Shown here piece after piece: positions 2,505 to 24,942 of a stretch of DNA of 31,949 nt. Source of the stretch: a virus (taxonomy: Duplodnaviria > Heunggongvirae > Uroviricota > Caudoviricetes); the IMG/VR virus record IMGVR_UViG_2563366840_000012, positions 1 to 31,949 of that record; one strand, 5' to 3'. Position numbers and translations under genes: made by a program. Position 1 is the stretch's first letter. Each line of letters starts with the position of its first letter. The notes beneath the pieces were generated by a model, which saw only the letters and a program-made list of their open reading frames with translations, was not told where the DNA came from and did not search any database.

Positions 2505-4361
2505 TTATACAGTATACGCAACAGAACCATCAGCTTTATAGTAGTTGCCATCTCCTCCCCACCACACCGGAATTTTGAATACTGTATCATACGAGCAAAG
2601 ACCAATCACTGCTCTGTCGTGTCGTGCTTTAATATCTGCGGTTTTACCGGAAGAAAATTCAACTACCTGATGCACAATATAATTACTATTGTTAGTCCAC
2701 TGAATAACATGATGCTCCCTGGTCCCTGCGCTAACATAAATGTCGCTATGCCAATCTGCGATAATAGAGTTTATAACACCATTGTAATACGTTGCATTTA
2801 ATTTAAAGAACCCTGTATCCTGACCAATTACACTGAGCCACGGACTGAATAATTGTTTGATATCAGGTGTAGAGTTAATAAGTTGTATCCTGAATTCAAA
2901 ACCGTTACGCACATTATTCTCATTGCACCACTCTTTAATGGCGTTACATGCCTCAAGCACAGACATTGACGGGGTTACAGTTGATAAGTATAAATACTTT
3001 GCAAGTTCAGAATCTGAACTAAGTACAATATCTGAGGTCTGAATCTTACTTGTATAGTTAACTACAGGAAATAAACTCCCATCAACAACGTTAAGAGCGC
3101 GTGTTAGTGGATAATCTTTTGTCTCAAGTGTATTAAAATAGGTGTTACTTGTTAATGCATCAACCACACCAGGTCTAAAATTAAAAACATTAGCATCCCA
3201 TATAGTAAGATGAAATCTACAGTGATTCATCATTCCTGGAGCATGCTCCATATGAACAATTTTGCTCATTTGAGGATGAGGTTGTGCTTTTAATCTTATT
3301 AAAATATCTCCAATTCCAGATGATATATTACCTGAAGATGTTGGTAAGCTTGTGTCGCGAAAATGATATGTTGAGAACCATGAAGATAAGTTTAAATCTA
3401 GTGAAGATATAAAGTTTAACTTATTTGCACCAACACCCATGGCATGAGCAACAGTAAAACCTGTTGAAGATACATCTATTTCATTAAAAATCAAAACTTC
3501 TTCATCAATTGAATTGCAATCTATAGAAAAACCATATCCTTCATCCATAACAGGAGATGTAGCAACCTCTTGTTTTACTGCTCCCTGGCGGTTAAAAACA
3601 TAGAATGGACCAAATTTTGTCTTTTGAGTTAACCTGTCAAGATTTGCTGGCGAGGTATAGTATTTTGTACCTCTAATTGTTAATGCAATACGTGTGTATC
3701 CTCCACCAGGGATATCGACAGTTATCCTCATTCCGTTTCCGATGACATCAGTAAGAACGTTTTTAAATATCAACCCATCTATGTTGCTGCGGATAATGAA
3801 CTCTACATCAGGGCCAATGTGCAACCGTTCCAGCAGTGAGACATCTATATTATGTGGTCTAGTAATTAAATACTTCCCTGAATTCACTACAAAAGAACCG
3901 TCTTTAAGCATATCATCAAGATAATCACTACACGATATATTACCAGTATTATCAGCCCCGTAAGATTTTAGATCCCCACCAATGTATTGATAACCGTATG
4001 GAGAATGAAGTTGTTCCTTTAGTTGATCAGGATCATACTTAAGAACATTAGGAAAGTAGAACTGCTGTGAACCATATGCATCATAAACAGCCATAGAATG
4101 GCCTTGTACAGTTACGAATTTGGCAATCTGTCCGTTATATACCGGATAACCAGCAGCGTTAATGATGATTGGCTGTGCAACAGGAACGTGAGAACCATCT
4201 TCGTTCTCTACATAAACCTGAATCTGGTTTTCAGGATTTACCGGGTCAGTGTCAATTTTTCCTATATAAATTTTGCCATTGGCTACGGCTTTAAAAGAAC
4301 GAGCCATAGTGAAGAGTTGCGAAGGCATGCTTACCACAACATTTGCGGTGATATCTGACAT
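2505..4361 (-). CDS. Tailspike protein: conserved P22/Sf6-type N-terminal head-binding domain, divergent receptor-binding domain
   Basis: N-terminus [60 protein letters not shown] is the P22 gp9-type head-binding domain; start ATG 4359-4361 with GGAG RBS; rest of protein does not match P22, Sf6 or HK620 tailspikes as I remember them. Confidence 0.85.
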
Positions 4362-4482
4362 TTTATTGCTCCAGACGAATGATATGATGCAACCATGATG
4401 TGATTGCATACAGAAATGGTACTATTGAGTATTTATCCAGTAGGTTACGATGCCATTCCACCCAACTGGTGAGGCATCAAGG

Positions 4483-4743
4483 ATGTACAGCAAATACGAC
4501 GAGGCGCAGTTTCACTTGAGACTTCCGCATGAACTCCACGCGAAAATTAAACAGCGCGCGAAGATGAATAACAGGTCGCTGAACTCAGAGATAATTGCAG
4601 CGATTGAAGAATCATTGGCTAAACAAAGCTCTGCATCAGTTTACATTGACGATGCAGAGCGTATGGCAGAACAACAATCTGATATGGTTAAGAAAATTGT
4701 CTTTGATACGCTCAAAGAGCTATATAAAAAAGACAGCAGCTAA
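4483..4743 (+). CDS. mnt: Mnt-like ribbon-helix-helix repressor (orphan; no arc/ant nearby)
   Basis: Alignable by eye to P22 Mnt (..NNRSLNSEI.. and DAERMAEQQSDMVKKIVFDTLKELYKK versus P22 DAERLADEQSELVKKMVFDTLKDLYKK); divergent from tailspike; start could be 4450. Confidence 0.7.
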   Translation: MYSKYDEAQFHLRLPHELHAKIKQRAKMNNRSLNSEIIAAIEESLAKQSSASVYIDDAERMAEQQSDMVKKIVFDTLKELYKKDSS

Positions 4744-4832: not shown

Positions 4833-6830
4833 CTATTCTGACAACGCATCAGACTTGGCACCTTGAGTCAGGGCGTTAATGGCCTTTTGCGCCTGCTGCA
4901 TGGCTTTCTCAAACGCTGTTGATCCGCGTGGGGTGTTTGCCATTCGGAGCATTGCATTTCTGAATGGCTCGCTCTCATAGGCGCGAGTAAGAAGTCCGTA
5001 GCTTACCGCTGCGCCAGTTGTCGCCGGGTTCATTGCCGTCCCATATCCGATAATGAACGGGATGGTTTGCTGCCCTGTTGGTGTTGTTACTGCTGCTTTT
5101 GCAGCCTGCTGCGTGGATTGCAGGTAGTTTTTCAATCCTTTCAGATAAGCGGCTTCCTGACCTTTAAATGTGATGCCAGTCTGGTTTTGCAGGACATTAA
5201 GCTGCCGAAGGAACTGGTCAGGGGATCCGCCAGATTTCTCCATCGCCTTTCCAATGATGCCATTGCGCATTTGCGCCCTGCCAACACGACCAACTGAGTT
5301 ATACAGAGTCTTAATTTCCGATTTGTTCTTGCTGAATAGCATGTTGTTGACAACTTCCGGCGTCAGATCGCCTTTCATGAGAACATTCTTCAGCCTGGTA
5401 TTCTTTAGTTTCGCTGCTTCGTCAGCATAGACGGCATTGGCCTGCTGATATTTACGGAGAGTATCGTTGCCAAGATTCTGACCAATGGCACCATTGATAT
5501 CGTCGGTAATTGCCTTGTAAACGCGCTGAATAGCAGCATCGGAACGGTTTGGTAACACTGGTCGCTCACCCTTCACGTCCATTCTGAACTGGCTGCGCAG
5601 ATCGCTTAATTGCTTCAAATCCAGATTTACCGGACCATCAGGACCAGCATTGCGAACAAGCTCATCACGATAGGACTGAAGTTTTGAAATAGTCTCGTTA
5701 TCAGCAACCTTACCAAGCTTCTGCAGGTTAGATATTTCTGTATCAATCTGCTGAATTGCTCGCGCAGGCTGAATGTTTACTCCAGCCATAGCATTCTGAA
5801 CCTGCTCCAGTCGATTACCGGCGGCACGACGAATTCCTGATGTTTTCGCTTTAAGGCTGTCAATAACAACCGCTGGATCATACTCACCGAATTTATCAGC
5901 AAATCTCTGCACCAACTGGCTTCTCGCTTCCTGTTGCGTTGCTCTCATTCCGCTTGTGCCAGCCAGAGGGATATTTTCTGCTGTAGTCTGCGCCATTTTT
6001 CCGACGCGGGAAGTTGGTTGTAACAGGTCTGTGGTGTGCAGAGGAACTCCTTCACGCTCTGCAAATCTGATAGCCTGCTGCGCTTCTGGAGCGATAGCAC
6101 CACGAACACCACGATAAGCAGCACCTATTCCACGTCCGGCAGCGTTAATAGCACCGCCAGCCAGCACACCAACGCCTAAATCGGTGGCGAGTGCTTCCGC
6201 ATCATCTTTCGCACTGTTTGCAGCAAGTGATCCAACTGCGTTTTCTGCTAGAAGGCGAGTTGCCCCCTGAGCAATTCGACCAGCAAGTGTTGGTGCCTGT
6301 GCTGCCGCTCTCTCAACGCCAGCAGGAGTGAGGTAAGGCAATGCTTCAGCAAATACCCTTCCCTCTGTCGTTTGTGGAGTCAGCGCGCCTTGCTGAAGGC
6401 CAAAGTCCTGCTCTAATCCCTGCGTTGTTACACGTGGCGCTGGTTGATATGTACCATCGCCAATGCCGAGTTTACCGCCAGCCCAAGCCGCCGCGCTTGT
6501 TACAGCATCGGCAACTGATGCAGGTATGTTTGCAACGTTCACGCCAGCCTGCACCAGTCCGCGACCAGTCTCTTTTACTGCTTCGCCAAGATCAGACATA
6601 AATCCACTTTGCTGTGGTTGTTGCTGTGCTACTGATTGCTGTGTCTCCACTGGCTGCACAGATGGCAATGGATAGGCAGCATAGAAAGCTTGCTTAGCCT
6701 GCTCTGCATTTTCTCCGGCTTGCGGGGCCACGACTTCATTGAAGTATTGCTCCTGAGCCTGCGCTTTTTGTTCTGGTGCTAACGCCTGATACTGTGGAGA
6801 GGCGATAACATCTTTCCATGCTTTAGCCAT
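4833..6830 (-). CDS. DNA ejection/transfer protein, P22 gp16-like
   Basis: 665 aa, Gly/Ala/Gln-rich low-complexity protein in the gp16 position of P22-like gene order (last of the 7-20-16 trio before the tailspike). Confidence 0.7.
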   Translation of the reverse strand: MAKAWKDVIASPQYQALAPEQKAQAQEQYFNEVVAPQAGENAEQAKQAFYAAYPLPSVQPVETQQSVAQQQPQQSGFMSDLGEAVKETGRGLVQAGVNVANIPASVADAVTSAAAWAGGKLGIGDGTYQPAPRVTTQGLEQDFGLQQGALTPQTTEGRVFAEALPYLTPAGVERAAAQAPTLAGRIAQGATRLLAENAVGSLAANSAKDDAEALATDLGVGVLAGGAINAAGRGIGAAYRGVRGAIAPEAQQAIRFAEREGVPLHTTDLLQPTSRVGKMAQTTAENIPLAGTSGMRATQQEARSQLVQRFADKFGEYDPAVVIDSLKAKTSGIRRAAGNRLEQVQNAMAGVNIQPARAIQQIDTEISNLQKLGKVADNETISKLQSYRDELVRNAGPDGPVNLDLKQLSDLRSQFRMDVKGERPVLPNRSDAAIQRVYKAITDDINGAIGQNLGNDTLRKYQQANAVYADEAAKLKNTRLKNVLMKGDLTPEVVNNMLFSKNKSEIKTLYNSVGRVGRAQMRNGIIGKAMEKSGGSPDQFLRQLNVLQNQTGITFKGQEAAYLKGLKNYLQSTQQAAKAAVTTPTGQQTIPFIIGYGTAMNPATTGAAVSYGLLTRAYESEPFRNAMLRMANTPRGSTAFEKAMQQAQKAINALTQGAKSDALSE

Positions 6831-8131
6831 TAATCACCCCATAGTGAAGAAAAGTTACTGCCAGTAGTAGATTGTTGCCCTGGCATATTCTGCACCGGCT
6901 CCTGATAATCAAACTGTTTTTTAACAGTGCTCAACTTGCTTTCAAGCTGATTTCTAATCTTTCCGATAGAGTCACGAAAAGCCTTTTCACTCATTTTGGG
7001 ACTTAGGGCACCAACCGCATCGGATAATTTTTTACCCTCAGCATCTGAAAGAGCGCCCATACCCTTCAGGGACTGCACCATAGGAAGGAATGTTTGAGCT
7101 TTAAAGGTGTCGAGCCTTGCTTCAAAGTTAGCCGCATCAGAGCCAGGAACTGTCGGAAACGCTGAGCGAATTCCTACTGCTTTTGAAAGGCCGGGGCTTT
7201 GCTCTATCTCGTTGAGAGAATCAAGCGCGGTACTGAACGTATCAACAGCACCCTGAGCGGCGGCCTGCCTGTCAGCGCGGGCTATGTCAGCCTTTTGCCG
7301 AACATCTGCCTGTTTCTGTTTTAGCTCTTCAAGCTTTAACTGATTGCTTTCTCTGGCTATCTGTCTGTCCAGAGCCTTTTCTTGTAATTCTGCTCTTTGT
7401 ATTTCTCGGGAAAGAGCAGCATTCTGTGCGCTGATGTTCTGTCCACGTATCTGGATGTTCTGACCTCGTGCTGTTAGCGCCTCGCCAGCCTGATTGCTGC
7501 GGATTGTCTCTGCAAGTTTTCCGCGATCAATCTCACGCCCAACGATTCTGTCTTGCGCCTGAAAATATTGTTCTGGACCAAGTGCAGCCATTCCAAGGTG
7601 ATCAACAAACTCTGTGAAACCTTGTGGATTTTGCTGATACATTTTCGCCACATCCAGAGGGTCTACTCCGGCACGAGTAAGCTCAGATGAGTTGTTCTGC
7701 AACCATGACATCATGGCTTCTGGAGATGAAGCTGCCAGTCTGGCACTTGCTGCCAGTGTGCCGACAGTGGAACGCTGGTCTTCATCGACAAATTTCATGC
7801 CGTTTCTTACAGCGTCAAACTGCTCAGGATACTGTGATGCCAGTTTTCGCATTGCATCGCGGTCACCAGATGTATATGCATCAGCATAAGCCTGTTGAAA
7901 CTCTTGCTGTCGCTTCTGCTGATCCATCTGCTTATACATATCCATGACAGATGAAATGCCCTGCAAAGCCTGCAAGCCAACGTTATTACGTCCTGAACGC
8001 TCCATCTCGTTATTCTGTCGAATGTATGCAAGCGTGGAGTCTGCATCACTTGCTCTTGGAGCGTTGGAGTTCATGCCGCCTAACCCGGCAAGAAGCGCGC
8101 CTGAATTACCAGCCTGTTGCCATGTAGCCAA
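6830..8131 (-). CDS. DNA ejection/transfer protein, P22 gp20-like
   Basis: 433 aa; position and coiled-coil-rich composition consistent with gp20; 1-nt TAATG overlap with downstream gene. Confidence 0.7.
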   Translation of the reverse strand: MATWQQAGNSGALLAGLGGMNSNAPRASDADSTLAYIRQNNEMERSGRNNVGLQALQGISSVMDMYKQMDQQKRQQEFQQAYADAYTSGDRDAMRKLASQYPEQFDAVRNGMKFVDEDQRSTVGTLAASARLAASSPEAMMSWLQNNSSELTRAGVDPLDVAKMYQQNPQGFTEFVDHLGMAALGPEQYFQAQDRIVGREIDRGKLAETIRSNQAGEALTARGQNIQIRGQNISAQNAALSREIQRAELQEKALDRQIARESNQLKLEELKQKQADVRQKADIARADRQAAAQGAVDTFSTALDSLNEIEQSPGLSKAVGIRSAFPTVPGSDAANFEARLDTFKAQTFLPMVQSLKGMGALSDAEGKKLSDAVGALSPKMSEKAFRDSIGKIRNQLESKLSTVKKQFDYQEPVQNMPGQQSTTGSNFSSLWGD

Positions 8132-8143
8132 GAGACACCTCCA

Positions 8144-8803
8144 TTAAAAAAGTGAACCAAGAAGACCGACGCCAGCACCAATTGCTGTACCCCAACCAGG
8201 CATGATTGCAGTACCTGCAGCTGCACCTGCTGCCGCTCCACCCAAGGCGCTCTGAAATCCTGATGGTTTATTCGCATTAGCCGCAGATGCTGCCGCCTGC
8301 TGTTGATACAATTGGCTGACGTTGTTAGCGTAGTTCTGTCCGGCATTTGCCTGACCTGTAAGAGCGCCAAGGCCGATATTTGCCAGATTGTTGTAGTTGT
8401 TCATCTGACCTGACAGCCAGTTTTGACCGAGTGTAGGTGCGATTGCTGCTAACTGGTTTCCTGTTGCTGTAGAGCCTAATCCACCCGTTGCCTCTGCTGC
8501 TGCCAGACTCTGGTAACGCGCCTGTCCTGCAAGGTCTTTGTACTGCTGGGAGTTGTAATACTGGTTAAGCGCCTGACCTTGCCCCTGAAGAGAGGAAAGA
8601 TTTTGCAACTGTGATACGTACTGCTGAGCGAGTGGCGTGAACGGTGCAAGGTTCTGCATGTTCGTCTGCCACATTTCACGTTGCAGTTCGATGCCCTTTT
8701 CAGTTGCGCGTGCCTGGGCTTTAGATCCGGAGTCGCTGCCGCCTTTCATATACCCATTCATGGGAAGCAATTTATTCTTGAAGCTTTCGCTAAGTACTAA
8801 CAT
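8144..8803 (-). CDS. Ejection protein, P22 gp7-like
   Basis: 219 aa Gly/Ala/Gln-rich protein in the gp7 position. Confidence 0.6.
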   Translation of the reverse strand: MLVLSESFKNKLLPMNGYMKGGSDSGSKAQARATEKGIELQREMWQTNMQNLAPFTPLAQQYVSQLQNLSSLQGQGQALNQYYNSQQYKDLAGQARYQSLAAAEATGGLGSTATGNQLAAIAPTLGQNWLSGQMNNYNNLANIGLGALTGQANAGQNYANNVSQLYQQQAAASAANANKPSGFQSALGGAAAGAAAGTAIMPGWGTAIGAGVGLLGSLF

Positions 8804-9260
8804 TTAATAGCTCCTCATATTTCGAACGAGGTAATTGATAGAGGGTGATTCCAACCGGTTTTCCGTTACTCATGTAAGAATCATCAAGGTGACCAACACG
8901 GGTAGCGCCAAGCAAACGGATAATTGCCCGTCCGTATTTCGTGGTGTCAGGAACCATAGTGATGCTGTTAAGGAATGGTGAGTTTTCGAGAAGCCATTTG
9001 CAGAATAATCGATGCCCTTGCAGTGCATATTCGCCACGGAATCCGGGGTCGTACACCGCATGGCATTCAACAACGCTATGCCAGAAGTTACGCACTTCAT
9101 GCACTCCGACCAGCATCAGTCCTTCGTAGATGCCGAGGTATACCGCATCAGGCTTGATGTAGTATTTGTCTCCACTGTCTACGATATTTCCCGTGTTTGC
9201 CGGGTTGTTGAGGAATTCTGCAAGCTTCACCGGATTATCGATGAGCTTTATTTCCATCAC
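8790..9260 (-). CDS. Head assembly protein, P22 gp14-like
   Basis: 156 aa ORF between tail needle and gp7, conserved position. Confidence 0.6.
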
Positions 9261-10105
9261 TGCTCCGCAATGATTTTGATGGTTGTGGCAGTAAACGCCG
9301 CACCATTTGACTGAATGGTTAACGTGCTGCCATTTGTGGCAAGAAAGCCGTCTTTATCCACGCTGAAGAACGTAGCTAACAAGAGGTTATCGGTTGTTGT
9401 CGCCGAGTTGCGACTGCTTACTAGAGTGTCAGGAACAGAGCCGGAAAAGGTTAGCTGCATTGACCTGTTGGAGGTTCCGCTGGGCCACGTCCCGACGATC
9501 GACAGCTTGAAGAACAGGGTTTTGTTCTCGTTGAACACAACCATCTTGTTGTTAACGGTGTCGAAGAATGGTGCTAACGTGCCGGATGACGGCGTTAGCG
9601 TTTTAAGCAGGCTAACAAGGTTGGTCGGCGCTGTCGGGATGGTTACAGATACGCCAGAGTAAACAACCTCTGACTTCTTGCGAGTAGTGGCATACTCCAG
9701 AGCATCGATGCGCGTTTCATGGTCTGAAACCTGCGACTCCAGCGACTGAACTCTTGTGTCAAGCGACGCAATATCGCTTTCATTCTGAGCTATTCGTGTT
9801 TCATGGTCCTGAAGAGTTGATTCTGCCTGGCTGATTCGCTCCTCATGATTAACAAGCGTTGCTTCCGCAGCAGAAATTCGTTGCTCATGATCAGCGAGAA
9901 TCACATCCTGCTCATCGTTCCTGACTTGTGCATCATAAGCGCCCTGTCCGGCCTCGTTGGCCTTGTTAGCCACGTTACCAACATCAGTGCCCTGTGCGAT
10001 AACGTAAAGCAGATACGACTGCGAGAAGATATTGCGTGGAAGGACTGATGTGTCGAGCCGTGTAGCCTGAATGATTACCGGCACATTGAGATTCGAATCC
10101 GCCAT
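9257..10105 (-). CDS. Tail needle (gp26-like) with extended C-terminal domain
   Basis: N-terminus [43 protein letters not shown]... matches P22 gp26 N-terminus; heptad coiled-coil repeats (DHETRI...); 282 aa versus ~233 aa in P22, suggesting an Sf6-type C-terminal knob. Confidence 0.8.
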
Positions 10106-11523
10106 TACTCAATCCTTATCTGGCAGCCAGACAGAGTGACTGGTGACTTCGTAATAACGCGCAATTTGAAGCCGGCATTTTTCCTGATGCGCCCGACGCG
10201 CTTCCACAAAACGCGTTTGTCGTAAACGAACGGTTCATTCTGCTCAATCATCTGCTCACGTCCGTAATTGATGCCGTCAGTGGTTGCAGAGAGAAAAAGG
10301 CGGTCAGCATACTGCGCAACTCCAGTTGAAGATTCAACTTCAAGGTCGAAAACTCTGGCGTTATCTGCTTTGAACAACGGAGTAAACAGCAGGTGTTCCT
10401 GTTGCTTGTCGTACTGGCTGCTGATATCGAACTGCAATTTCCCGGTCACCGATTCCAGCTTATCGCCGCACGTTATCTGATTTCCTTCGTAAATGAAGTC
10501 GATAGCGCGGTACACATCGTCATACAAGCCTGTTTTCAGCACACACCATTGCGGACCATTGGCGCTTGAAGATGCGTCGTACACGAGAACATGGCAAGGA
10601 AGATGAATAATCAGCAACTCATGCGCATCAAATCGCAACGATTCCATCACGCCATCAGCCAGTTCATCAGCAGTGTAGGAGCGGAGTATTTTCTCAATGC
10701 TCGCGTTGGCGATTGGTGATACCTGCCCGGAACCGATGATGTATACAGATGGCGCACCTGTTGCCGGATTGCTGATGAACGCATAGGAATCAGCGAATGG
10801 CGTTTTGCAATAGGTTCCGGCAATACCTTTCTGCACCATCAGCGATGGCTGTGCGACATACAAAGCGGCACCAACGGTGGTTGCACCCGTCAGGGAGAAA
10901 TATTCAATCGTCGATGAACCAAAGCAGACGATGAAGTCTCGCCATGTGCCGATGCCGAGGATACCGTCCGGCTGCGATTCTGCGCGATATTGTGCGCTGT
11001 AGCGGTCAGGATGCGATTCGTCTTCAAGGTCAGTGATAAACCATGAATCAGTGCCGTCTTTTGACCACGCATAACGCCCGCGTAAGCGCGTAATGTCACG
11101 AACAGAACCTAACTCATACTGCGTGAATCCGCTGTCTGTAGGCCAGTTTGAGACGGTTTTAACCGTGCCATCATAGCGATACTCGACCAGTTGACCATTA
11201 ACGCCTACCGCCTGTGATGTTCGACCATGCGCCATTGATACGCGACCACTTCCGGCAACATCACCAACCTCGCTTTCGCCCTTATACAGCTTGCCACCAC
11301 ACACGCGATAAACAGCGTTCTGCGCCATGTTGTACTCGACGCCTCGCGATACGCCGTTCACATCAGAACGTTTGGCAATGCCCGGGAATGAGCGAAGATA
11401 TCCGCTGCTGTTCAGGATTTCTTTGGGCGTAGCCAGCATATTCACTGGCAGATAGTCGATATAGTCGGCGTTTCGGAAGTCTTTTCCGACACCTTTCATA
11501 AGCGGAAGTTGCTGAATCGGCAT
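10105..11523 (-). CDS. Tail accessory protein gp10-like
   Basis: 472 aa, same length and position as P22 gp10. Confidence 0.75.
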
Positions 11524-11532
11524 TTATTCACC

Positions 11533-11994
11533 TCACGTACTCGGATCATCTTTCTCGATGTAAAACCGATTCCACGTAAACGCGCTTTTGTTACCACTAC
11601 CGCGAGGCATGTCATTTCTCCGCTCAAGTGGTGGTATTTTGGTTAAAGCGATACAGATTGTCTGATATGCACTGTCAGCAGCGGTAAGGAGAGCGTCTGA
11701 CGGCTGAATGACGTTATCCATGCACACTTGCACAGCGAGTTTCAAAGCGACGCCATCATTTGCCCATGCAGGGATACCTGAATCATCGTCAGGTAACGGC
11801 ATGATGCCGTTTTCTGTATCAGCAAACTGATACCCAAGCTCGATACCTTTTGCCTGCCATGCTGCCATCATGTCTTCGAGGTCATTAATGGCATCTTCAA
11901 TTGCCTGAGGGTCAGCATCTGTCAACGTGGCATTGGAATACAGCCCGGCTTTTCGTAAAGCCTTAAGAACGAGATCACCCTTCGTTTTCGCCAT
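11533..11994 (-). CDS. Head-to-tail adaptor gp4-like
   Basis: 153 aa in gp4 position downstream of coat. Confidence 0.75.
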   Translation of the reverse strand: MAKTKGDLVLKALRKAGLYSNATLTDADPQAIEDAINDLEDMMAAWQAKGIELGYQFADTENGIMPLPDDDSGIPAWANDGVALKLAVQVCMDNVIQPSDALLTAADSAYQTICIALTKIPPLERRNDMPRGSGNKSAFTWNRFYIEKDDPST

Positions 11995-12163
11995 CTTCTT
12001 CCGCCTTAGCCACTTTTTGCTTCGTTGCGGTTTCTTCAGGAGTTTTTACCCAGCCTTTTTTCAGGTGAGATTTAACTTCTTCGTCATCAACAATGATGTA
12101 ATCGACAGCAAACTGACCACAGGTGATCATGTTGCCCGGCTTATAGAGCATTGTTCGTGCCAT
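11975..12163 (-). CDS. Small hypothetical protein (62 aa) between coat and gp4
   Basis: ATG at 12161-12163 (MARTMLYK...) preceded by GGGAGAAG RBS; the longer track ORF to 12199 would start inside a terminator hairpin. Confidence 0.4.
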   Translation of the reverse strand: MARTMLYKPGNMITCGQFAVDYIIVDDEEVKSHLKKGWVKTPEETATKQKVAKAEEDGENEG

Positions 12164-12173
12164 TGTCTTCTCC

Positions 12174-12199
12174 CAATAAAAATGGGGCCGAAGCCCCAC
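12174..12199 (-). terminator. Intrinsic terminator immediately downstream of the coat gene
   Basis: Minus-strand GGGGCTTCGGCCCC hairpin followed by ATTTTTATT, directly after the coat stop. Confidence 0.5.
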
Positions 12200-12204
12200 C
12201 TAAA

Positions 12205-13458
12205 TTACTGCCCGGCAATAACGATGCCCGTATATTCAGGAACCAGTACAGAGCAACCGTACAGAGTGGTGAAACGCGCAGTGGTTACGCCTTTGATGTG
12301 GTCGAAGGCGTAAGACATGATCAGCGTAGCGCCCTGCTCGGTGGTTGCTGTCATTACCTGTGGACCCTGACCAGTCGGGAACGCCAGTTTGCCGTACATC
12401 AGTTCAACAGAACCATCAGCCCAGAACAGGTTAGCCGGTGCGGAATTTTTGTTGAGAATGGTGATTGCTGCGCTACTTGCCGCATTAGCATCAACGTTTG
12501 CATATGGACGGCTGGCGACATCCGCGTTGTCAGGCGGCAGAATTTTCGGGGAGATAGTTACTGTCGTTCCGCTTACTGCCAGAACGCGGAATACCTGCGG
12601 CTGCCCGGTGGTATCTTTGGTGATCTGGTGTACAGAATTCACCCCTGCAATGGTAAACGCATCGCCAACCTGCAAACCTTCAGTAGATACCGTAATGGTC
12701 CCCTGTCGGTTATCAACTGGCATATCGTTAGCATCTTTCGCTTCAACTTTGTGCGCAGGTGCTGCTGCCAGCGTAATGGAAGTTGCTGTCCCTTTCGGAA
12801 CACGACCAGAAATATCAGTCTTGTAGCTATCAAAGGAAGCAACCGGAGGGATCTGCGCTTTTTCGTATGCTGTCAGGGTTGCGCCCTGAGCGTAGGCACG
12901 GTGACCAAGCTCGCCAGCAAGGTCTTTGTAGTTGAAGGGGTTCCAGAAAGAGCGACGGTTGATACCCTGCGGTACACCAATCGCCGTCATGGTGGCATCA
13001 ATACCTGCCGCACAGTTCCACAAATCACGGCCCTGTGAACCAGTGGTTGAGTCAGCCATCGTGATCACGTTAGTAGCACGCTGCGTAACCATGGAAATCA
13101 GGTCAGAGTCAATCTGTGCAGCAAGGCGCATACCTGCGGCGCGACCAGCTTCAGTTTTATGTTCCGGGTCACGCATTTCACGCGCATCCAGAGTGTACAG
13201 AATGTTTTTCGGTTCCTTGAACACAGAAGGAACAAGGCGCTGAACCAGTGCTGTTGGCGTTTTGCCGCTGAGGTCTAGGCCTTCCTCAATGTTCATGTGG
13301 TAATGCTGCGGACGATACAGAACATCACCTGCTCGCTGCATTGCTGTATCACCGGGACGGAATTTTTTAGCGTTACGGGAAACTACGCAGGCGGCCTCAA
13401 AGCCTTCAACGTAGTTTTCGAACATGATTTCAAGGTCTTTTGCTAATTGGTTAGCCAT
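12205..13458 (-). CDS. Major capsid (coat) protein, P22/Sf6 gp5-like
   Basis: 417 aa ORF between scaffold and gp4; size and position as in P22-like phages. Confidence 0.8.
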   Translation of the reverse strand: MANQLAKDLEIMFENYVEGFEAACVVSRNAKKFRPGDTAMQRAGDVLYRPQHYHMNIEEGLDLSGKTPTALVQRLVPSVFKEPKNILYTLDAREMRDPEHKTEAGRAAGMRLAAQIDSDLISMVTQRATNVITMADSTTGSQGRDLWNCAAGIDATMTAIGVPQGINRRSFWNPFNYKDLAGELGHRAYAQGATLTAYEKAQIPPVASFDSYKTDISGRVPKGTATSITLAAAPAHKVEAKDANDMPVDNRQGTITVSTEGLQVGDAFTIAGVNSVHQITKDTTGQPQVFRVLAVSGTTVTISPKILPPDNADVASRPYANVDANAASSAAITILNKNSAPANLFWADGSVELMYGKLAFPTGQGPQVMTATTEQGATLIMSYAFDHIKGVTTARFTTLYGCSVLVPEYTGIVIAGQ

Positions 13459-13476
13459 GCTTAATGCTCCGATAGG

Positions 13477-14370
13477 TTATTTTTTTGCCTTTTTAGCGGC
13501 GAAATACGGCGTCCAGTCACCAGTTTCCAGCGCCTTGGCTTTCAATTTGCCGAGGTTGTTGATTACTGCGCCGTTGCTCCCCTTAACTGTCGGGGTTGTG
13601 GCTGCCGTGGTTTTTGCTTTTGGCATGATTCTGGCCTTCGATTCGATACGTTCCAGCAGACGACCAATTGCTACGGGGTTGGTAGCTTCTGCCAGTTGCT
13701 TGCGCAGTTCAGCGTTGCGACCGAGTGCCAGAACAACGATTTCCGGCTTCTCTGACTCAAACAGGATCGCGTTTTGTGTCTCGATGGGGATTTCCTCGAG
13801 TACGGCCTGCTCAGCTTCCTGATAGCCAGGAACTTTGAGAGCCTTAACACGTTGCTGATATTTGGATAATCGCTCTTGATAGGCAGCCTGAAGCTCCTGC
13901 TCCTTCTGCTTGCGAGCCATCTCCTGTTGCTGGTACTTGCCGTTATCCTCTGCCCACTTAGCCATGCGTTGCTGGTAGATTTCTTCATCGAAACCGATGT
14001 CCTCATCATCCAGTTTTGGCATTCGCGGTGGTTGAGTGATTACCGGCTGCTGCTCGACGGGTTTCTGAGACTGACGCATCAGCTCTTTCAGCTCACGGTC
14101 TTTCTCTTTAATCGTCTTGCGCAGGTGTTTTACCAGTCCATGCTCTGCGCTATCTTCGCTGGTTGGCGAATCCAGCTTTTCGTCACCAAAGTAGAATTCC
14201 TGTTCTGATTCGTCGTCATCAGTGTCAGTAGCTTCCTCTGCATCATTTCCTGAGGACTCACTGCCATCTGCTTTTTCGACTTCTTCAGCCAGTTCGACAT
14301 CATCAGGAATCTGCTCTGACGCGTCGGGTTCGATTTCAACTTCTGGTGTGTTTTCTGCCATCTGGTCCAT
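13477..14370 (-). CDS. Scaffolding protein gp8-like
   Basis: 297 aa, acidic N-terminus, highly charged helical composition, between portal and coat. Confidence 0.7.
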   Translation of the reverse strand: MDQMAENTPEVEIEPDASEQIPDDVELAEEVEKADGSESSGNDAEEATDTDDDESEQEFYFGDEKLDSPTSEDSAEHGLVKHLRKTIKEKDRELKELMRQSQKPVEQQPVITQPPRMPKLDDEDIGFDEEIYQQRMAKWAEDNGKYQQQEMARKQKEQELQAAYQERLSKYQQRVKALKVPGYQEAEQAVLEEIPIETQNAILFESEKPEIVVLALGRNAELRKQLAEATNPVAIGRLLERIESKARIMPKAKTTAATTPTVKGSNGAVINNLGKLKAKALETGDWTPYFAAKKAKK

Positions 14371-14460
14371 TTGTTACCCCTGTTTACTCGATGTTCAGCC
14401 CATCGGAAGGCAATAGGGTGCCAGGCCTCATAAAGACAGCCATTGCACGTTATGGGTTAA

Positions 14461-16659
14461 TTACTGCTGTGGTTGTTGCTGAGTTGATTTTTGCAGGATG
14501 CCGCTGATGTCCATGTGCTGCGCATGGCCCTGTGCCTGACTTTTCAGGACAAGCTCTGCATCAGCACGGGCATTGTCTCCTTGCTGTTGCTGGAACTGTC
14601 CGAGCAGTTTCAGAGCCTCGCGGATATCAGATTTCTGCTGGCTATCGGCAGATGCGAGGATTTTCACAACATTTGCCGCTGCAACCTGAGCATCAGTCTG
14701 TGCCTGGAATGCTTTAACCTGAATGGCTGCCTGTTCGTTCTGCGCTTTCTGCAATTCAGCCTGACCAGCAAGAAGCTGACCTTGCGCAGCAACCATAGCC
14801 GGATCTGGCTGACTGGCCTGTTGTTGTTTCGCCTGCTCAACCATTTGCTGTTCTTCTGGTGTTCTCGGCTTAATAACGCCAGACAGAAGCAACTGATTGC
14901 GGTTGTATTCTTTAAGGTCGTCCATCCCTTCGCCGTCCATATTGTCGAGAATCATCGACGATACAAGGTCATGCTTCGGCGTTCCTGGCGGGATAAGTGC
15001 CAGCATGGAAAGCAACGACTTAACCGTTGCATCACGGCGAGTAGCGAACGACTGACCGACATCGACAGTCACTTCATAGTTACCCTGCGAAAGGTCGTTA
15101 AGCGCGACAACCTTCCCTGTCTGACGGTCAACCACTTCACCAGTCATCAGCGCCACGTCATCGCTGCCATCCTCATTAACGATGCGCATTGGCGTATCGC
15201 TGCCATAGACTTCACGAGCCATAGAAAGCCACACGACGCCAGCACGGCGCATGGATTTAGCCATGTTGTCCATGTAGATATAGGACTGCGTGTCCATCCG
15301 GTTAAAGATGCTATCAACGGTATCGGTAGCGACGTTGCTCGGCATGTTCTCAAGCTGCGACGCACCTGTAATTTGCTGAATAGCCGTTCCGGTGTACTGC
15401 AATAGCCCAGCAAGAGCAGGAGGCATTTGTGTCGGAGGTGTCCAGCCAGCAACCTGAGCCTCTGAAATGACCGTTCCGTTTTTGTCCTTCTTGCTGGTCA
15501 TGGGAAGAACTGCAGGTCTTTTCTTATTCCTCTCTGCCCAGTGATTCATTAATGGACCGGGAATGAAATCAACATCCACGATAGGAATGCCATCGCCGCC
15601 AGCCTGAGTAGCGTTATCTGCAATCATGGAAACCATCAGGTTCTCAAGACGCTGTGCATCCATCGCTTTTGCTGCGTGGCCTTCGATTCGCTCCTGATTA
15701 TCAACAAATGAACGACGCCCATATACCGGGATGAGAGGAATATGTTCGCCCGGAATACGCTTCGGTTCTTCCAGCCATTCAGCGCCAGACAGAAGACCGC
15801 AATAAACTCGGCGTTTCTTCACCGTTCGCTCGCCAATCAGTTCGAATGCACCATCGGTCAGCTCGTCGACAATATCTTTGATTTGCTCTTCATCATAGAT
15901 TGCCGTTTCTCCGCTGACAGGGTTACGCCATGCTGTGAGCTTCACCTTCTCTATGCGGACTTCGTAGTAGCGTCCAACATAGATGGCGTCAGGCGTTGAC
16001 CAGTCATACTGAGTACCAGTGTCATCACGAGAAAGGCTTGCCGCGATGGAATCAGGGTATTCAGCCTCGAACGCTTTAGGCGTCATGGAGAACATTTCCA
16101 TAGCCCACATGGCATCAGAGCGGTCATATTGCTTGCTGTCCTGATCGAAGAAGACGCATGTCGCCGGGTCGTAAACAGGAAGAAGGCTGATGCGTCGCTG
16201 CTCGTTACTCGGATCCATTTCATCTTCGTAATCAGCACACATGCGGAAACAACCGAATCCGCCCGTTACAGCATCATCAAATGCGTTATCACACGCTTCG
16301 CCACCGGATGTTTCCTGATAATCAGCGCGGAATTTGCCGTTCATCTTTTCGGCTAACGCTTCCGATGCCTTGTCATCCTTCGGCCTGAATTTAACGCTGA
16401 TGCGATTCTGTCGATACTCGCCAATGATGCGATCACATTCACGGGCAATCTTATTCAGTTCAAAGCGCGGGTAATGCTCAAACCTGCCTTCATCAAATGA
16501 GTAACCAGCGTTTGTGCTGCCTTCCCACTGTGCGCCGGACACCCGGACGAAACGTTGAGCCTCAATAATCTGCTTACGCATATCCTGCGTTGCTGACCAG
16601 GCATTATCAAAGTTGCACAGCACCTTGCGGTGCCAGTCAGTCATCTTTTTTTCTGCCAT
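14461..16659 (-). CDS. Portal protein
   Basis: 732 aa (P22 portal ~725 aa), immediately downstream of TerL; Gln-rich C-terminal barrel-like tail. Confidence 0.85.
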   Translation of the reverse strand: MAEKKMTDWHRKVLCNFDNAWSATQDMRKQIIEAQRFVRVSGAQWEGSTNAGYSFDEGRFEHYPRFELNKIARECDRIIGEYRQNRISVKFRPKDDKASEALAEKMNGKFRADYQETSGGEACDNAFDDAVTGGFGCFRMCADYEDEMDPSNEQRRISLLPVYDPATCVFFDQDSKQYDRSDAMWAMEMFSMTPKAFEAEYPDSIAASLSRDDTGTQYDWSTPDAIYVGRYYEVRIEKVKLTAWRNPVSGETAIYDEEQIKDIVDELTDGAFELIGERTVKKRRVYCGLLSGAEWLEEPKRIPGEHIPLIPVYGRRSFVDNQERIEGHAAKAMDAQRLENLMVSMIADNATQAGGDGIPIVDVDFIPGPLMNHWAERNKKRPAVLPMTSKKDKNGTVISEAQVAGWTPPTQMPPALAGLLQYTGTAIQQITGASQLENMPSNVATDTVDSIFNRMDTQSYIYMDNMAKSMRRAGVVWLSMAREVYGSDTPMRIVNEDGSDDVALMTGEVVDRQTGKVVALNDLSQGNYEVTVDVGQSFATRRDATVKSLLSMLALIPPGTPKHDLVSSMILDNMDGEGMDDLKEYNRNQLLLSGVIKPRTPEEQQMVEQAKQQQASQPDPAMVAAQGQLLAGQAELQKAQNEQAAIQVKAFQAQTDAQVAAANVVKILASADSQQKSDIREALKLLGQFQQQQGDNARADAELVLKSQAQGHAQHMDISGILQKSTQQQPQQ

Positions 16660-16660
16660 A

Positions 16661-18076
16661 TCAACCTACACCACAAGGAATTGAGTAACTGGAATAGTCG
16701 GGTTGCGCAGCCGACTCCGGGCAATGCATACACATCATCAGCGCATCAGCCAGGTTAGGAGATGGAATACCGAGCTTCTGCTTCATTTCGACCTTAGTCA
16801 TAAGCTCCAGCTTCCCGTTGTTATTGAATTTGCGCTGAATCTGCGTCAGTTCTGCAAACAGCTTCTCCAGCATCTTCTCGCCTATCGCTTCTTTGTCGAA
16901 GCTCAGCATGTCGTCGGGGTCTGCATACTCACCGTGGACAACCGCCCGATATGTCAGATACAACCTGTCAGCCAGCGCGTAATAGAATTGCGCTCGCTTA
17001 TTGCGGAATACATCGCCAATAGTGCGAACATTGTCGCCCTGTACGACTTCATCAGCCCATGCTCCGGCCTGATATGGCGCATCTTCATCGAATGGCGATT
17101 CGCTGCCCTTGAACATCGTGGCGGTGATTTTCTTGCCGGAGAACGCTTCCGTTGTCTGTCTGCGTAGCCCTGCACCGACACCATCACCATCCCACAAGTA
17201 GTGGTCAGCACCGTCTTCAATCGCCAGCGAAGTAGCCCAGTCAGCCCCCTCGTTGATGTCCATCAGCAGACCTTCGGCAATGCGCTTAACTACCGAACCG
17301 TGACGCGATGCATAACCTTTAGCATCCGGCCCTGTATCTGACGGGTCATGAGCAGAAACAACCGCGCCTTTCGCTTTCCATCCGAGTTTCTTGTGCGCAT
17401 CGGTTGCGGCTTCAAGCCATTCACGTTTGATGATTGCCATATCACTTGCGCTCACTGGCTCACCAAGCCAGATGTGACGATACAGGGTCGGATTTCTGCG
17501 TTTACACTCTTCCATCTCCAGACGGAGAACTTCAGGAAAGTGCGGATTGTCGGTGTAGTTCACCGTCAGCAGACAAATATCATCGGGAGGATTTACAACG
17601 AATCGCTGATAGGTATCGTCGAGGATGTTCTTCGGGTTAAAGCTCACCCATATTTCAGAGAACGGCTTGCGGATGGTTGGTATCAGGATATCCCATGATT
17701 CCTTCGTTACCGCTTCCGCTTCTTCCACCCAGCAGATATCAATGCCTTCGAGCGATTTAATCTTCGTCGGGTTGTTTTTGATGCCGTAGAACATGAATTC
17801 AGCATTCGTTCCGAGATGACGAATCATGGAACGCTGAATTTCAAACTCAGCCGAATACCCTTCCCGCTCGATGGTGTCTTCAAGCAACCGGATTACCGAA
17901 TCGCTGATACTGTTTTGCAGTTCACGAGCGCAGAGAATACGCACAGGCTGCCGACGCGCCGCTTCAACAAGCAGCCTCGCAATTGCCCATGACTTACCGC
18001 TACCTCGACCGCCTTTGGCGACTTTGTAGCGATGCGCCTCAATGAACGGTTCAAAGATAGGATTAATCGAGGTCAT
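16661..18076 (-). CDS. Terminase large subunit
   Basis: 471 aa; Walker A KGGRGSGKS near the N-terminus; size as in Sf6 gp2. Confidence 0.9.
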   Translation of the reverse strand: MTSINPIFEPFIEAHRYKVAKGGRGSGKSWAIARLLVEAARRQPVRILCARELQNSISDSVIRLLEDTIEREGYSAEFEIQRSMIRHLGTNAEFMFYGIKNNPTKIKSLEGIDICWVEEAEAVTKESWDILIPTIRKPFSEIWVSFNPKNILDDTYQRFVVNPPDDICLLTVNYTDNPHFPEVLRLEMEECKRRNPTLYRHIWLGEPVSASDMAIIKREWLEAATDAHKKLGWKAKGAVVSAHDPSDTGPDAKGYASRHGSVVKRIAEGLLMDINEGADWATSLAIEDGADHYLWDGDGVGAGLRRQTTEAFSGKKITATMFKGSESPFDEDAPYQAGAWADEVVQGDNVRTIGDVFRNKRAQFYYALADRLYLTYRAVVHGEYADPDDMLSFDKEAIGEKMLEKLFAELTQIQRKFNNNGKLELMTKVEMKQKLGIPSPNLADALMMCMHCPESAAQPDYSSYSIPCGVG

Positions 18077-18495
18077 TTTCCGAATAGAGTGCTCATCGGT
18101 GATGTTTCAATCTGAATTGCGCCGCCGTCCTTACCGACAAGCTCGTTAGTTACCTTGTCGCCATACTTACGGGGATTCATTCGGGCCAACGCCCATTTGC
18201 GTGTATCAACGCGAAGTCTTGCCTTTGCCACTTCAGCAGCATCTGGAATCGCATTGTCAGCAATTTCGAATATCTCTTCGAAAATAGAATCAGCTCGTGC
18301 CTCAGTTGCCTTCGCGTACTTGTCGCGAAAATCCTCATGCTTTGCCAACCAGCGGAAAACAGTGGACTTATCCGGCATACCAGGACGCTTACATACTTTC
18401 AGCAAACTTTCGCCAGAAGAAAGCAACGAGCAGATATCGTCAGCCACCTCCGGCATATAATCAGAGGGGCGACCAGCTTTTGGTTCAGTCGCCAT
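18073..18495 (-). CDS. Terminase small subunit (Sf6 gp1-like)
   Basis: 140 aa ORF overlapping the TerL start by 4 nt; same length as Sf6 small terminase. Confidence 0.8.
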   Translation of the reverse strand: MATEPKAGRPSDYMPEVADDICSLLSSGESLLKVCKRPGMPDKSTVFRWLAKHEDFRDKYAKATEARADSIFEEIFEIADNAIPDAAEVAKARLRVDTRKWALARMNPRKYGDKVTNELVGKDGGAIQIETSPMSTLFGK

Positions 18496-24181: not shown

Positions 24182-24355
24182 CTATTTGAGTAACGCTTCG
24201 TCGCTGTCTCGCCATACGTCCTCCTTTTCCTGAGGTAGTGGTAACACCCCTGTTGGTGTTCTTTCACACCGGAGACACCATCGATTCCAGTAAGGTTGCC
24301 CGGGTCGAAAGCGATCGCCTTCCTTTCGCTCTCCACATCGATAACAGTGCTTCAT
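24182..24355 (-). CDS. Small zinc-ribbon protein (CxxC...CxxC), translationally coupled to the methyltransferase
   Basis: ATG 24353-24355 overlaps the MTase stop 24352-24354 (ATGA); [16 protein letters not shown]...WCLRCER two CxxC pairs; possibly NinD-like. Confidence 0.5.
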
Positions 24356-24942
24356 GCGATCACCATTTTGCATGGTTTAATCGCCATGCCGGTAGCCAGT
24401 TCAAAATCGGAGTTGCACTGATTGCCCCACATATCCCACCCGGTCACTTTGTCGCGGCTAAATAACTCACAGCGCGGCACGTCGCCAAGCAACTTAGCTA
24501 ACATGTCTCTTACGATCGGTGGTTTTGCACTGTGCTCCATTCTCGGTGCGGTAAAGTGCTGGCATATGGAAGCGTCCATTCTCTCAGGCAACCGCCCTCG
24601 AACAGCAAACAAGCAATCCTCGCTATTTGCCCTGGTCATATGCCCCATTCCGATCGCACTGTTGCCTTTGTGCTTATTGGTTTTGTGCCAGGTAAAGCCT
24701 TTCATAGTCATCAACCTGAATCCCCACGCCTCAACTACCTTTAGCGCTTCGGCTGGCTGTGTCGGCACCCACCACATCGCTAACAAGCAAGATTCTGGAT
24801 CCGCTAAATCCCATACTGGCAGTCGGCAAATGTCCTGAACATTCATAACATCGTATTTATGTCCAGCACCGCGATTGCCATCGTTGGCTTTGTCGCGATA
24901 TTGCCAAGGCGGATCTGCGTAAATAAGTCGGTATTTGTTCAT
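24352..24942 (-). CDS. DNA N6-adenine methyltransferase, MT-A70 family
   Basis: 196 aa; catalytic DPPW motif ([10 protein letters not shown]) near the N-terminus; occupies the ninC-ninE slot. Confidence 0.8.

Follow-up and report, generated by a model that had tools for sequence, protein, structure and literature searches.

It is likely that the tailspike (gp9 equivalent) of the P22-like argW prophage analysed here is a hydrolytic trimer, composed of a head-binding domain and an exchanged β-helix cassette that is specific for the O11/O16 O-antigen. The evidence comes from the domain boundary in the protein, the predicted fold of the cassette, and the O-antigen types of the bacteria in which the cassette is found. 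The window (the whole stretch of DNA that was analysed, 31,949 nt) holds this prophage of E. coli in argW, beside yfdC.

The tailspike gene, its prophage and the domain boundary

[quoted passage not shown] A plus-strand reading of the same interval gives a translation full of stops and was rejected. The protein is identical to WP_001569055.1 and ELF08403.1 (exact look-up in the protein collection), and the nearest genomes annotate it as a 'phage head-binding domain-containing protein'. Its N-terminus aligns with gp9 of P22, Sf6 and HK620 from residue 1 and opens like theirs. The ATG at 4361 was preferred over an upstream in-frame ATG at 4409, because GGAG precedes the former and there is no homologue support for the latter. 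Initiation at 4409 would add 16 residues that have no counterpart in any homologue, and this start was rejected.

Table 1. Features of the tailspike gene and its surroundings in the window
Feature	Position	Strand	Details
tRNA-Arg(CCT), argW attachment site	1009–1083	plus	ARAGORN
Integrase IntS	1209–2423	plus	Pfam integrase domains; EC187792 has the same layout
Tailspike gene (gp9 homologue)	2505–4361	minus	618 codons, stop at 2505–2507; ORF and translation
C-terminal α/β domain, residues ~451–618	2508–3011	minus	terminal motif common to other tail-fibre C-termini
Right-handed parallel β-helix (predicted), residues ~130–450	3012–3974	minus	pectate-lyase-3-like N-cap (...SGKYLI)
Linker/neck, residues 114–129	3975–4022	minus	first segment common to cassette homologues; low pLDDT in both models
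Head-binding (virion-attachment) domain, residues 1–113	4023–4361	minus	PF09008; ends at conserved ...VLKYDPDQ recombination boundary
Shine-Dalgarno GGAG	4369–4372	minus	7 nt 5′ of ATG 4361; direct sequence read
Mnt/Arc-type repressor (immI region)	4450–4743	plus	PF03869 Arc and PF11423 Repressor_Mnt

The gene lies at the far end of the P22-type virion genes and adjoins the integrase gene. Its P22-type virion neighbours are gp4, gp10, gp26, gp14, gp7, gp20, gp16 and mnt, with Pfam matches to P22_Tail-4, Phage_stabilise, Phage_tail_NK, DUF2824, P22_gp7, Inj_translocase, Mnt/Arc and integrase, and the annotation of strain EC187792 gives the same gene order for this module. The Mnt/Arc repressor gene is divergent from the tailspike gene, as in P22. 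Genes for coat, scaffold, portal, terminase, lysis, Q, an MT-A70 methylase, O/P replication and a CI-type repressor are also present, and the prophage, which is of Lederbergvirus type, looks complete. The tail needle (gp26 homologue, 9257–10105) has an Sf6-type knob domain (PF16532) and not the P22-type tip. The gene for the MT-A70-family DNA methyltransferase is at 24352–24942, in the early/nin region.

The match to PF09008 (Head_binding) covers residues 1–113 and all 113 of the 113 profile positions (E 5.2e-67; 223.6 bits against a curated cut-off of 24), which places the protein in the P22-like (Lederbergvirus) gp9 family. This domain is 93–96% identical to those of Sf6 and HK620. The gp9 of HK620 is approximately 96% identical over residues 1–114 and unrelated after that, with nothing significant found by BLASTP beyond residue ~120, while alignments with the solved tailspikes of P22, Sf6 and their relatives are confined to residues 1–118/125 (phmmer against PDB). 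More than 1,100 E. coli prophage tailspikes match the first 340–350 nt of the gene (to about residue 115) at 90–95% identity in megablast, and beyond this point only three E. coli genomes still match. Homologues of the remainder, at 56–66% identity, begin at residue 114–129 behind different N-terminal adaptors. All the cassette alignments start there, which puts the exchange point where the head-binding domain ends. The preliminary description had proposed a conserved P22/Sf6/HK620-type domain of about 110 residues, a departure from the known tailspikes after it, and exchange by recombination at the domain boundary, and all of this agrees with the alignments. They establish that residues 1–113 are a conserved head-binding domain, and that residue 114 onwards is a separate, horizontally exchanged receptor-binding cassette. 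The G+C content of the cassette (2505–4022) is 36.8%, falling to 33% at its lowest, compared to 50.5% in the adjacent structural module (4833–18495). Such a low value fits a mobile module linked to serotype. G+C is low in the head-binding part, too (40.7%).

Sequence family and predicted fold of the cassette

No significant match to residues 114–618 was found in Pfam, PHROGs or PDB (phmmer), including when the two sub-domains were searched singly. The receptor-binding domains of P22 and Sf6 are endorhamnosidases and that of HK620 is an endo-N-acetylglucosaminidase. The residues past ~120 here match none of these domains detectably: the 505-residue cassette has no sequence homology to any of the three in phmmer against PDB or in BLASTP against HK620 gp9. 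The receptor-binding part, described earlier as unrecognised, thus has no relative in sequence searches of Pfam, PHROG and PDB. Near-identity to a characterised tailspike, which would have spoken against a different specificity, was not seen either, the best phage-database match being 62% identical and to unstudied proteins. A profile of the family, run against PDB, gave only a 29-residue C-terminal motif match to 9d83 'Gp49' (E 0.004) and a sub-threshold match of the N-cap to phi29 gp12. The former involves the last ~29 residues (590–618; window 2508–2594) and the extreme C-terminus of 9d83, which suggests a short C-terminal motif common to otherwise unrelated tail fibres. The tailspike has no match to PF12708 (Pectate_lyase_3; gathering score 27 bits) even at E ≤10, and three homologues (P0035, P0040 and P0008) reach only 17–23 bits, over the N-cap.

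The family has very few members: 12 were found when 1.84 billion cluster representatives were scanned exhaustively with HMMER, and 34–41 in a word-indexed search of 5.8 billion sequences. A second profile search of the latter collection did not return the distant relatives, and added only closer ones. At 81–97% identity, the close relatives are tailspikes with a PF09008 domain from prophages in E. coli and Salmonella.

AlphaFold2 was used to model the monomer. A full-length run with 35 close sequences gave a pLDDT of 65, with residues 373–456 below 50, and a domain-only run that included distant relatives (20–44% identical) gave 81. The receptor-binding part is predicted to be a right-handed parallel β-helix, the fold for which structure prediction had been proposed as a check, and this is presumed to be the domain that binds and cleaves the O-antigen. 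Foldseek against PDB gave no match below E 1e-3. The nearest solved β-helices are Geobacillus virus E2 ORF18 (7chu), Klebsiella phage Kp7 gp51 (7y5s), GH55 Lam55A (3eqn), Depo32 (7vz3) and CBA120 TSP2 (5w6p/6w4q). They are 7–12% identical to the cassette and differ in substrate and catalytic residues, and no common family can be assigned from sequence. All the structural matches are at ≤13% identity and align ~250–316 residues, and the last ~165 residues are therefore taken as a separate α/β domain. The fold class is the expected one; solved structures include neither this sequence family nor its C-terminal domain. β-Helix folds are also found in lyases, epimerases and non-catalytic adhesins, which the fold search does not separate.

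A number of residues are invariant down to 20% identity, namely G162, Y164, Y222, Y234, F302, S319, W328, D352 (in GIGD), Q360-P361, K367, W388-D389, D401, N406 and a few more. Judging from this conservation, the candidate catalytic carboxylates are most likely to be among D352, D389 and D401, which fall partly in the less confident region (373–456, pLDDT <50) of the first model.

O-antigen types of the bacteria carrying the cassette

The cassette was found by blastn (65–70% sensitivity) in three of 5,426 complete E. coli genomes. A search with the O11 wzy gene picked out 66 complete genomes, which include all three carriers, and the cassette is present in none of the 5,360 non-O11 genomes (blastn). 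The hypergeometric probability for the link to O11 is 1.7e-6, or 1.5e-4 if just two independent events are counted. In EC187792 the prophage at argW is full, and wzx and wzy of the O-antigen cluster are annotated as O11. PCP06173 retains an IS-disrupted prophage remnant at argW, and in MB06232 the remnant lies next to proA, at thrW. The three carriers therefore represent two integration sites and not one insertion. Two of them were isolated from seawater at one and the same Galapagos island, and the prophage sites of these two differ. In the Galapagos O11 isolates (NZ_CM129873.1, L009, 1933–6257; and NZ_CM129885.1, L008) the tailspike is intact within heavily degraded remnants, one of them disrupted by IS3 at argW and the other at thrW, which hints that the tailspike gene is retained after the prophage decays. 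In the O11 lysogen EC187792 (NZ_CP158112.1, L002, 15302–16279) the annotation lists wzzB, the gene for the O-antigen chain-length regulator, as a pseudogene that contains an internal stop, and the receptor for the resident phage type might be altered by this.

In Salmonella, the 90%-identity cluster of the window protein includes serovars Saphra, Orientalis and Hvittingfoss, and the cluster of an 81% relative includes Gaminara and Redlands. The named carriers are all O:16 serovars, a count that covers the part of the cluster members that carry serovar names. Saphra, Orientalis and Redlands belong to O:16 in the White-Kauffmann-Le Minor scheme. The antigenic formulae of Hvittingfoss and Gaminara are 16:b:e,n,x and 16:d:1,7, respectively (PMC4777767). 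The O11 antigen of E. coli and the O16 antigen of S. enterica have been reported to be closely related (Li et al. 2011, pmid 21205000, as cited in PMC7685785). The E. coli O11 carriers and the Salmonella O:16 carriers are thus two independent lines that converge on O11/O16, and the cassette most likely recognises the E. coli O11/Salmonella O:16 O-antigen. The use of this tailspike for serotype inference, anticipated in the preliminary description, is possible by way of the O-types of the carriers, and leads to E. coli O11/Salmonella O:16.

In the Salmonella relatives with the 81% identical tailspike, an Acyl_transf_3 gene lies 49 nt 3′ of the tailspike gene and is followed by gtrABC (L011–L015, 5906–9760). 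The remnant in MB06232 has the same Acyl_transf_3 gene 49 nt behind its tailspike gene (L008, 8567–9472). In P22-like phages, seroconversion genes classically occupy the slot behind the tailspike gene. Acyl_transf_3 and gtrABC are typical seroconversion modules, and their location directly behind the tailspikes of the relatives argues that the receptor is O-antigen. In the window only 81 nt (2424–2504) separate the integrase stop from the tailspike stop, and neither Acyl_transf_3 nor gtrABC is present. There are therefore no O-antigen modification genes between integrase and tailspike. The usual slot is empty, and this prophage is apparently without O-antigen seroconversion at that position.

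Mode of action, alternatives and relatives on other virions

The tailspikes of P22, Sf6 and HK620 are trimers, which are held on the tail by the head-binding domain and cleave O-antigen endolytically. P22 gp9, Sf6 gp14 and HK620 gp9 (PDB 2xc1, 7sg7 and 2vji) have the same PF09008 domain as the protein described here, a gene that likewise closes the virion module and neighbours mnt and int, and the same plan of head-binding domain, short neck, right-handed β-helix and C-terminal domain. The mode of action, O-antigen binding and endoglycosidic cleavage, is presumed to be the same, and by this analogy the tailspike is probably a hydrolytic endoglycosidase. The head-binding domain would plug the spike into the tail hub, and the spike, as a homotrimer, would bind long-chain O-antigen, both of E. 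coli O11 and of the closely related S. enterica O:16. The β-helix would bind O-antigen repeats and shorten the chains by endoglycosidic hydrolysis, letting the virion work its way down to the outer membrane, as for P22, Sf6 and HK620.

That the cassette recognises the O11/O16 O-antigen as a non-catalytic adhesin, or acts on it with lyase or esterase chemistry, is unlikely, but it is the alternative to which we give most weight. The O11 gene cluster contains gnu, galE, the GDP-L-fucose pathway and four glycosyltransferases, and has no uronic-acid and no O-acetyl genes. A lyase acting by β-elimination and a deacetylase are both disfavoured by this, as the cluster lacks a uronic-acid pathway and an O-acetyltransferase to supply their targets. 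There is no SGNH Pfam match such as would be expected for SGNH-esterase tailspikes (e.g., G7C gp63.1), and the predicted β-helix is not an SGNH fold. A hydrolase is thus favoured by the content of the O11 cluster together with a fold that excludes an SGNH esterase. The conservation of three aspartates down to 20% identity also argues against this alternative, and O-antigen tailspikes of this architecture are mostly hydrolases.

The target itself might be something else. A different surface glycan, such as capsule, colanic acid or enterobacterial common antigen, would make the O11/O16 association incidental. We regard this as very improbable, given that the association spans E. coli (O11) and Salmonella (O:16) and at least two integration sites, that the relatives' tailspike genes directly adjoin O-antigen modification genes, and that to our knowledge all characterised PF09008 tailspikes, with the exception of the CUS-3 endosialidase, target O-antigen. 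It is slightly easier to imagine, and still improbable, that the serotype link is an artefact of sampling or clonality and that the cassette is in truth specific for another O-antigen or for a wider range than O11/O16. The complete E. coli carriers number only three, two of them from one sampling site, the Salmonella check is limited to named cluster members, and some prophage RBP subtypes span several serogroups including O11, although these are other RBPs (PMC10408124). Against this, the carriers differ in integration site and in prophage completeness, the five Salmonella serovars, all O:16, provide an independent line, and none of the 5,360 non-O11 complete genomes has the cassette even at blastn sensitivity. 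The preferred reading is therefore still a hydrolytic spike for the O11/O16 O-antigen.

Cassettes that are 56–66% identical are found behind other adaptors, of Ackermannviridae type, T7 type, in Drexlerviridae and in another siphovirus; one such adaptor is PF18668 (TSP1/gp66 N-terminal domain). The T7-like Escherichia phage Baskent_phicoli_1 has a tail protein with the same cassette but with a PF03906+PF18668 N-terminus. In the Drexlerviridae Escherichia phage BEK6 a 56% relative is located on a long tail-fibre shaft, and in the siphovirus AB4P2 ('Acinetobacter' phage vB_AbaM_AB4P2) the tail fibre encoded by the last tail gene is 62% identical to the cassette. An Ackermannviridae-like contig encodes P0008, which is one of four consecutive tailspikes adjoining baseplate genes. 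P0008 and the proteins of Baskent_phicoli_1, BEK6 and AB4P2 have 56–66% identity over residues 114–618 and the same invariant residues as the tailspike described here. P0008 (763 aa) is the third of the four spikes (metagenomic contig L016, 2749–13280), and has the cassette at 64% and no recognisable PF18668. More distant relatives of Vibrio type (33–35% identity) have a PF12571 tail-collar N-terminus. The AB4P2 record (OR544125.1, L006, 5626–7518) carries the name of a myovirus, yet has a tape-measure/siphovirus-type tail module; with such a tail, and a fibre 62% identical to an enterobacterial cassette, the host or name label looks doubtful.

The ~60% relatives may share the O11/O16 specificity or have a different one. 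Lysis by Baskent_phicoli_1 was confined to its isolation host, of ST1432 (PMC13319148). BEK6 was propagated on the rough K-12 strain K514, and the module is therefore dispensable for infection, at least in BEK6. More tentatively than for the tailspike itself, it is possible that the cassette founds a new glycoside-hydrolase family, consisting of a β-helix and a novel α/β C-terminal domain and specific for the fucose-containing O11/O16 O-antigen common to E. coli and Salmonella. It would then be a cross-genus receptor module, carried on at least five virion architectures (P22-like, Ackermannviridae, T7-like, Drexlerviridae and another siphovirus).

For P22-like tailspikes, the exchange of receptor modules at the YDPDQ boundary is well established, as is their correspondence with the O-antigen of the host. 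Among Salmonella prophages, 18 tailspike types correlate perfectly with O-antigen (Casjens & Grose 2016, as summarised in PMC10408124), and an O:16 type may already be among them. A 2023 survey of E. coli assigned RBP subtypes to 14 serogroups, which do not include O11 (PMC10408124), and O11 is described as prevalent among extraintestinal pathogenic E. coli from pigs (PMC4578781). In the literature we found no biochemical or structural study of any member of the cassette family, and no paper that pairs Hvittingfoss with a tailspike. No tailspike biochemistry is given in the publications on Baskent_phicoli_1 and BEK6, and the Ackermannviridae TSP subtype paper has no O11 or O16 entries. The present analysis assigns a probable receptor, E. 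coli O11/Salmonella O:16, to a tailspike family that is absent from databases and structures. Possible uses of the module are in-silico serotype inference, diagnostic probes, engineered host-range swaps and O-antigen depolymerase. Conceptually, it is one more case of cassette exchange in a P22-like phage at the YDPDQ boundary that tracks the O-antigen of the host.
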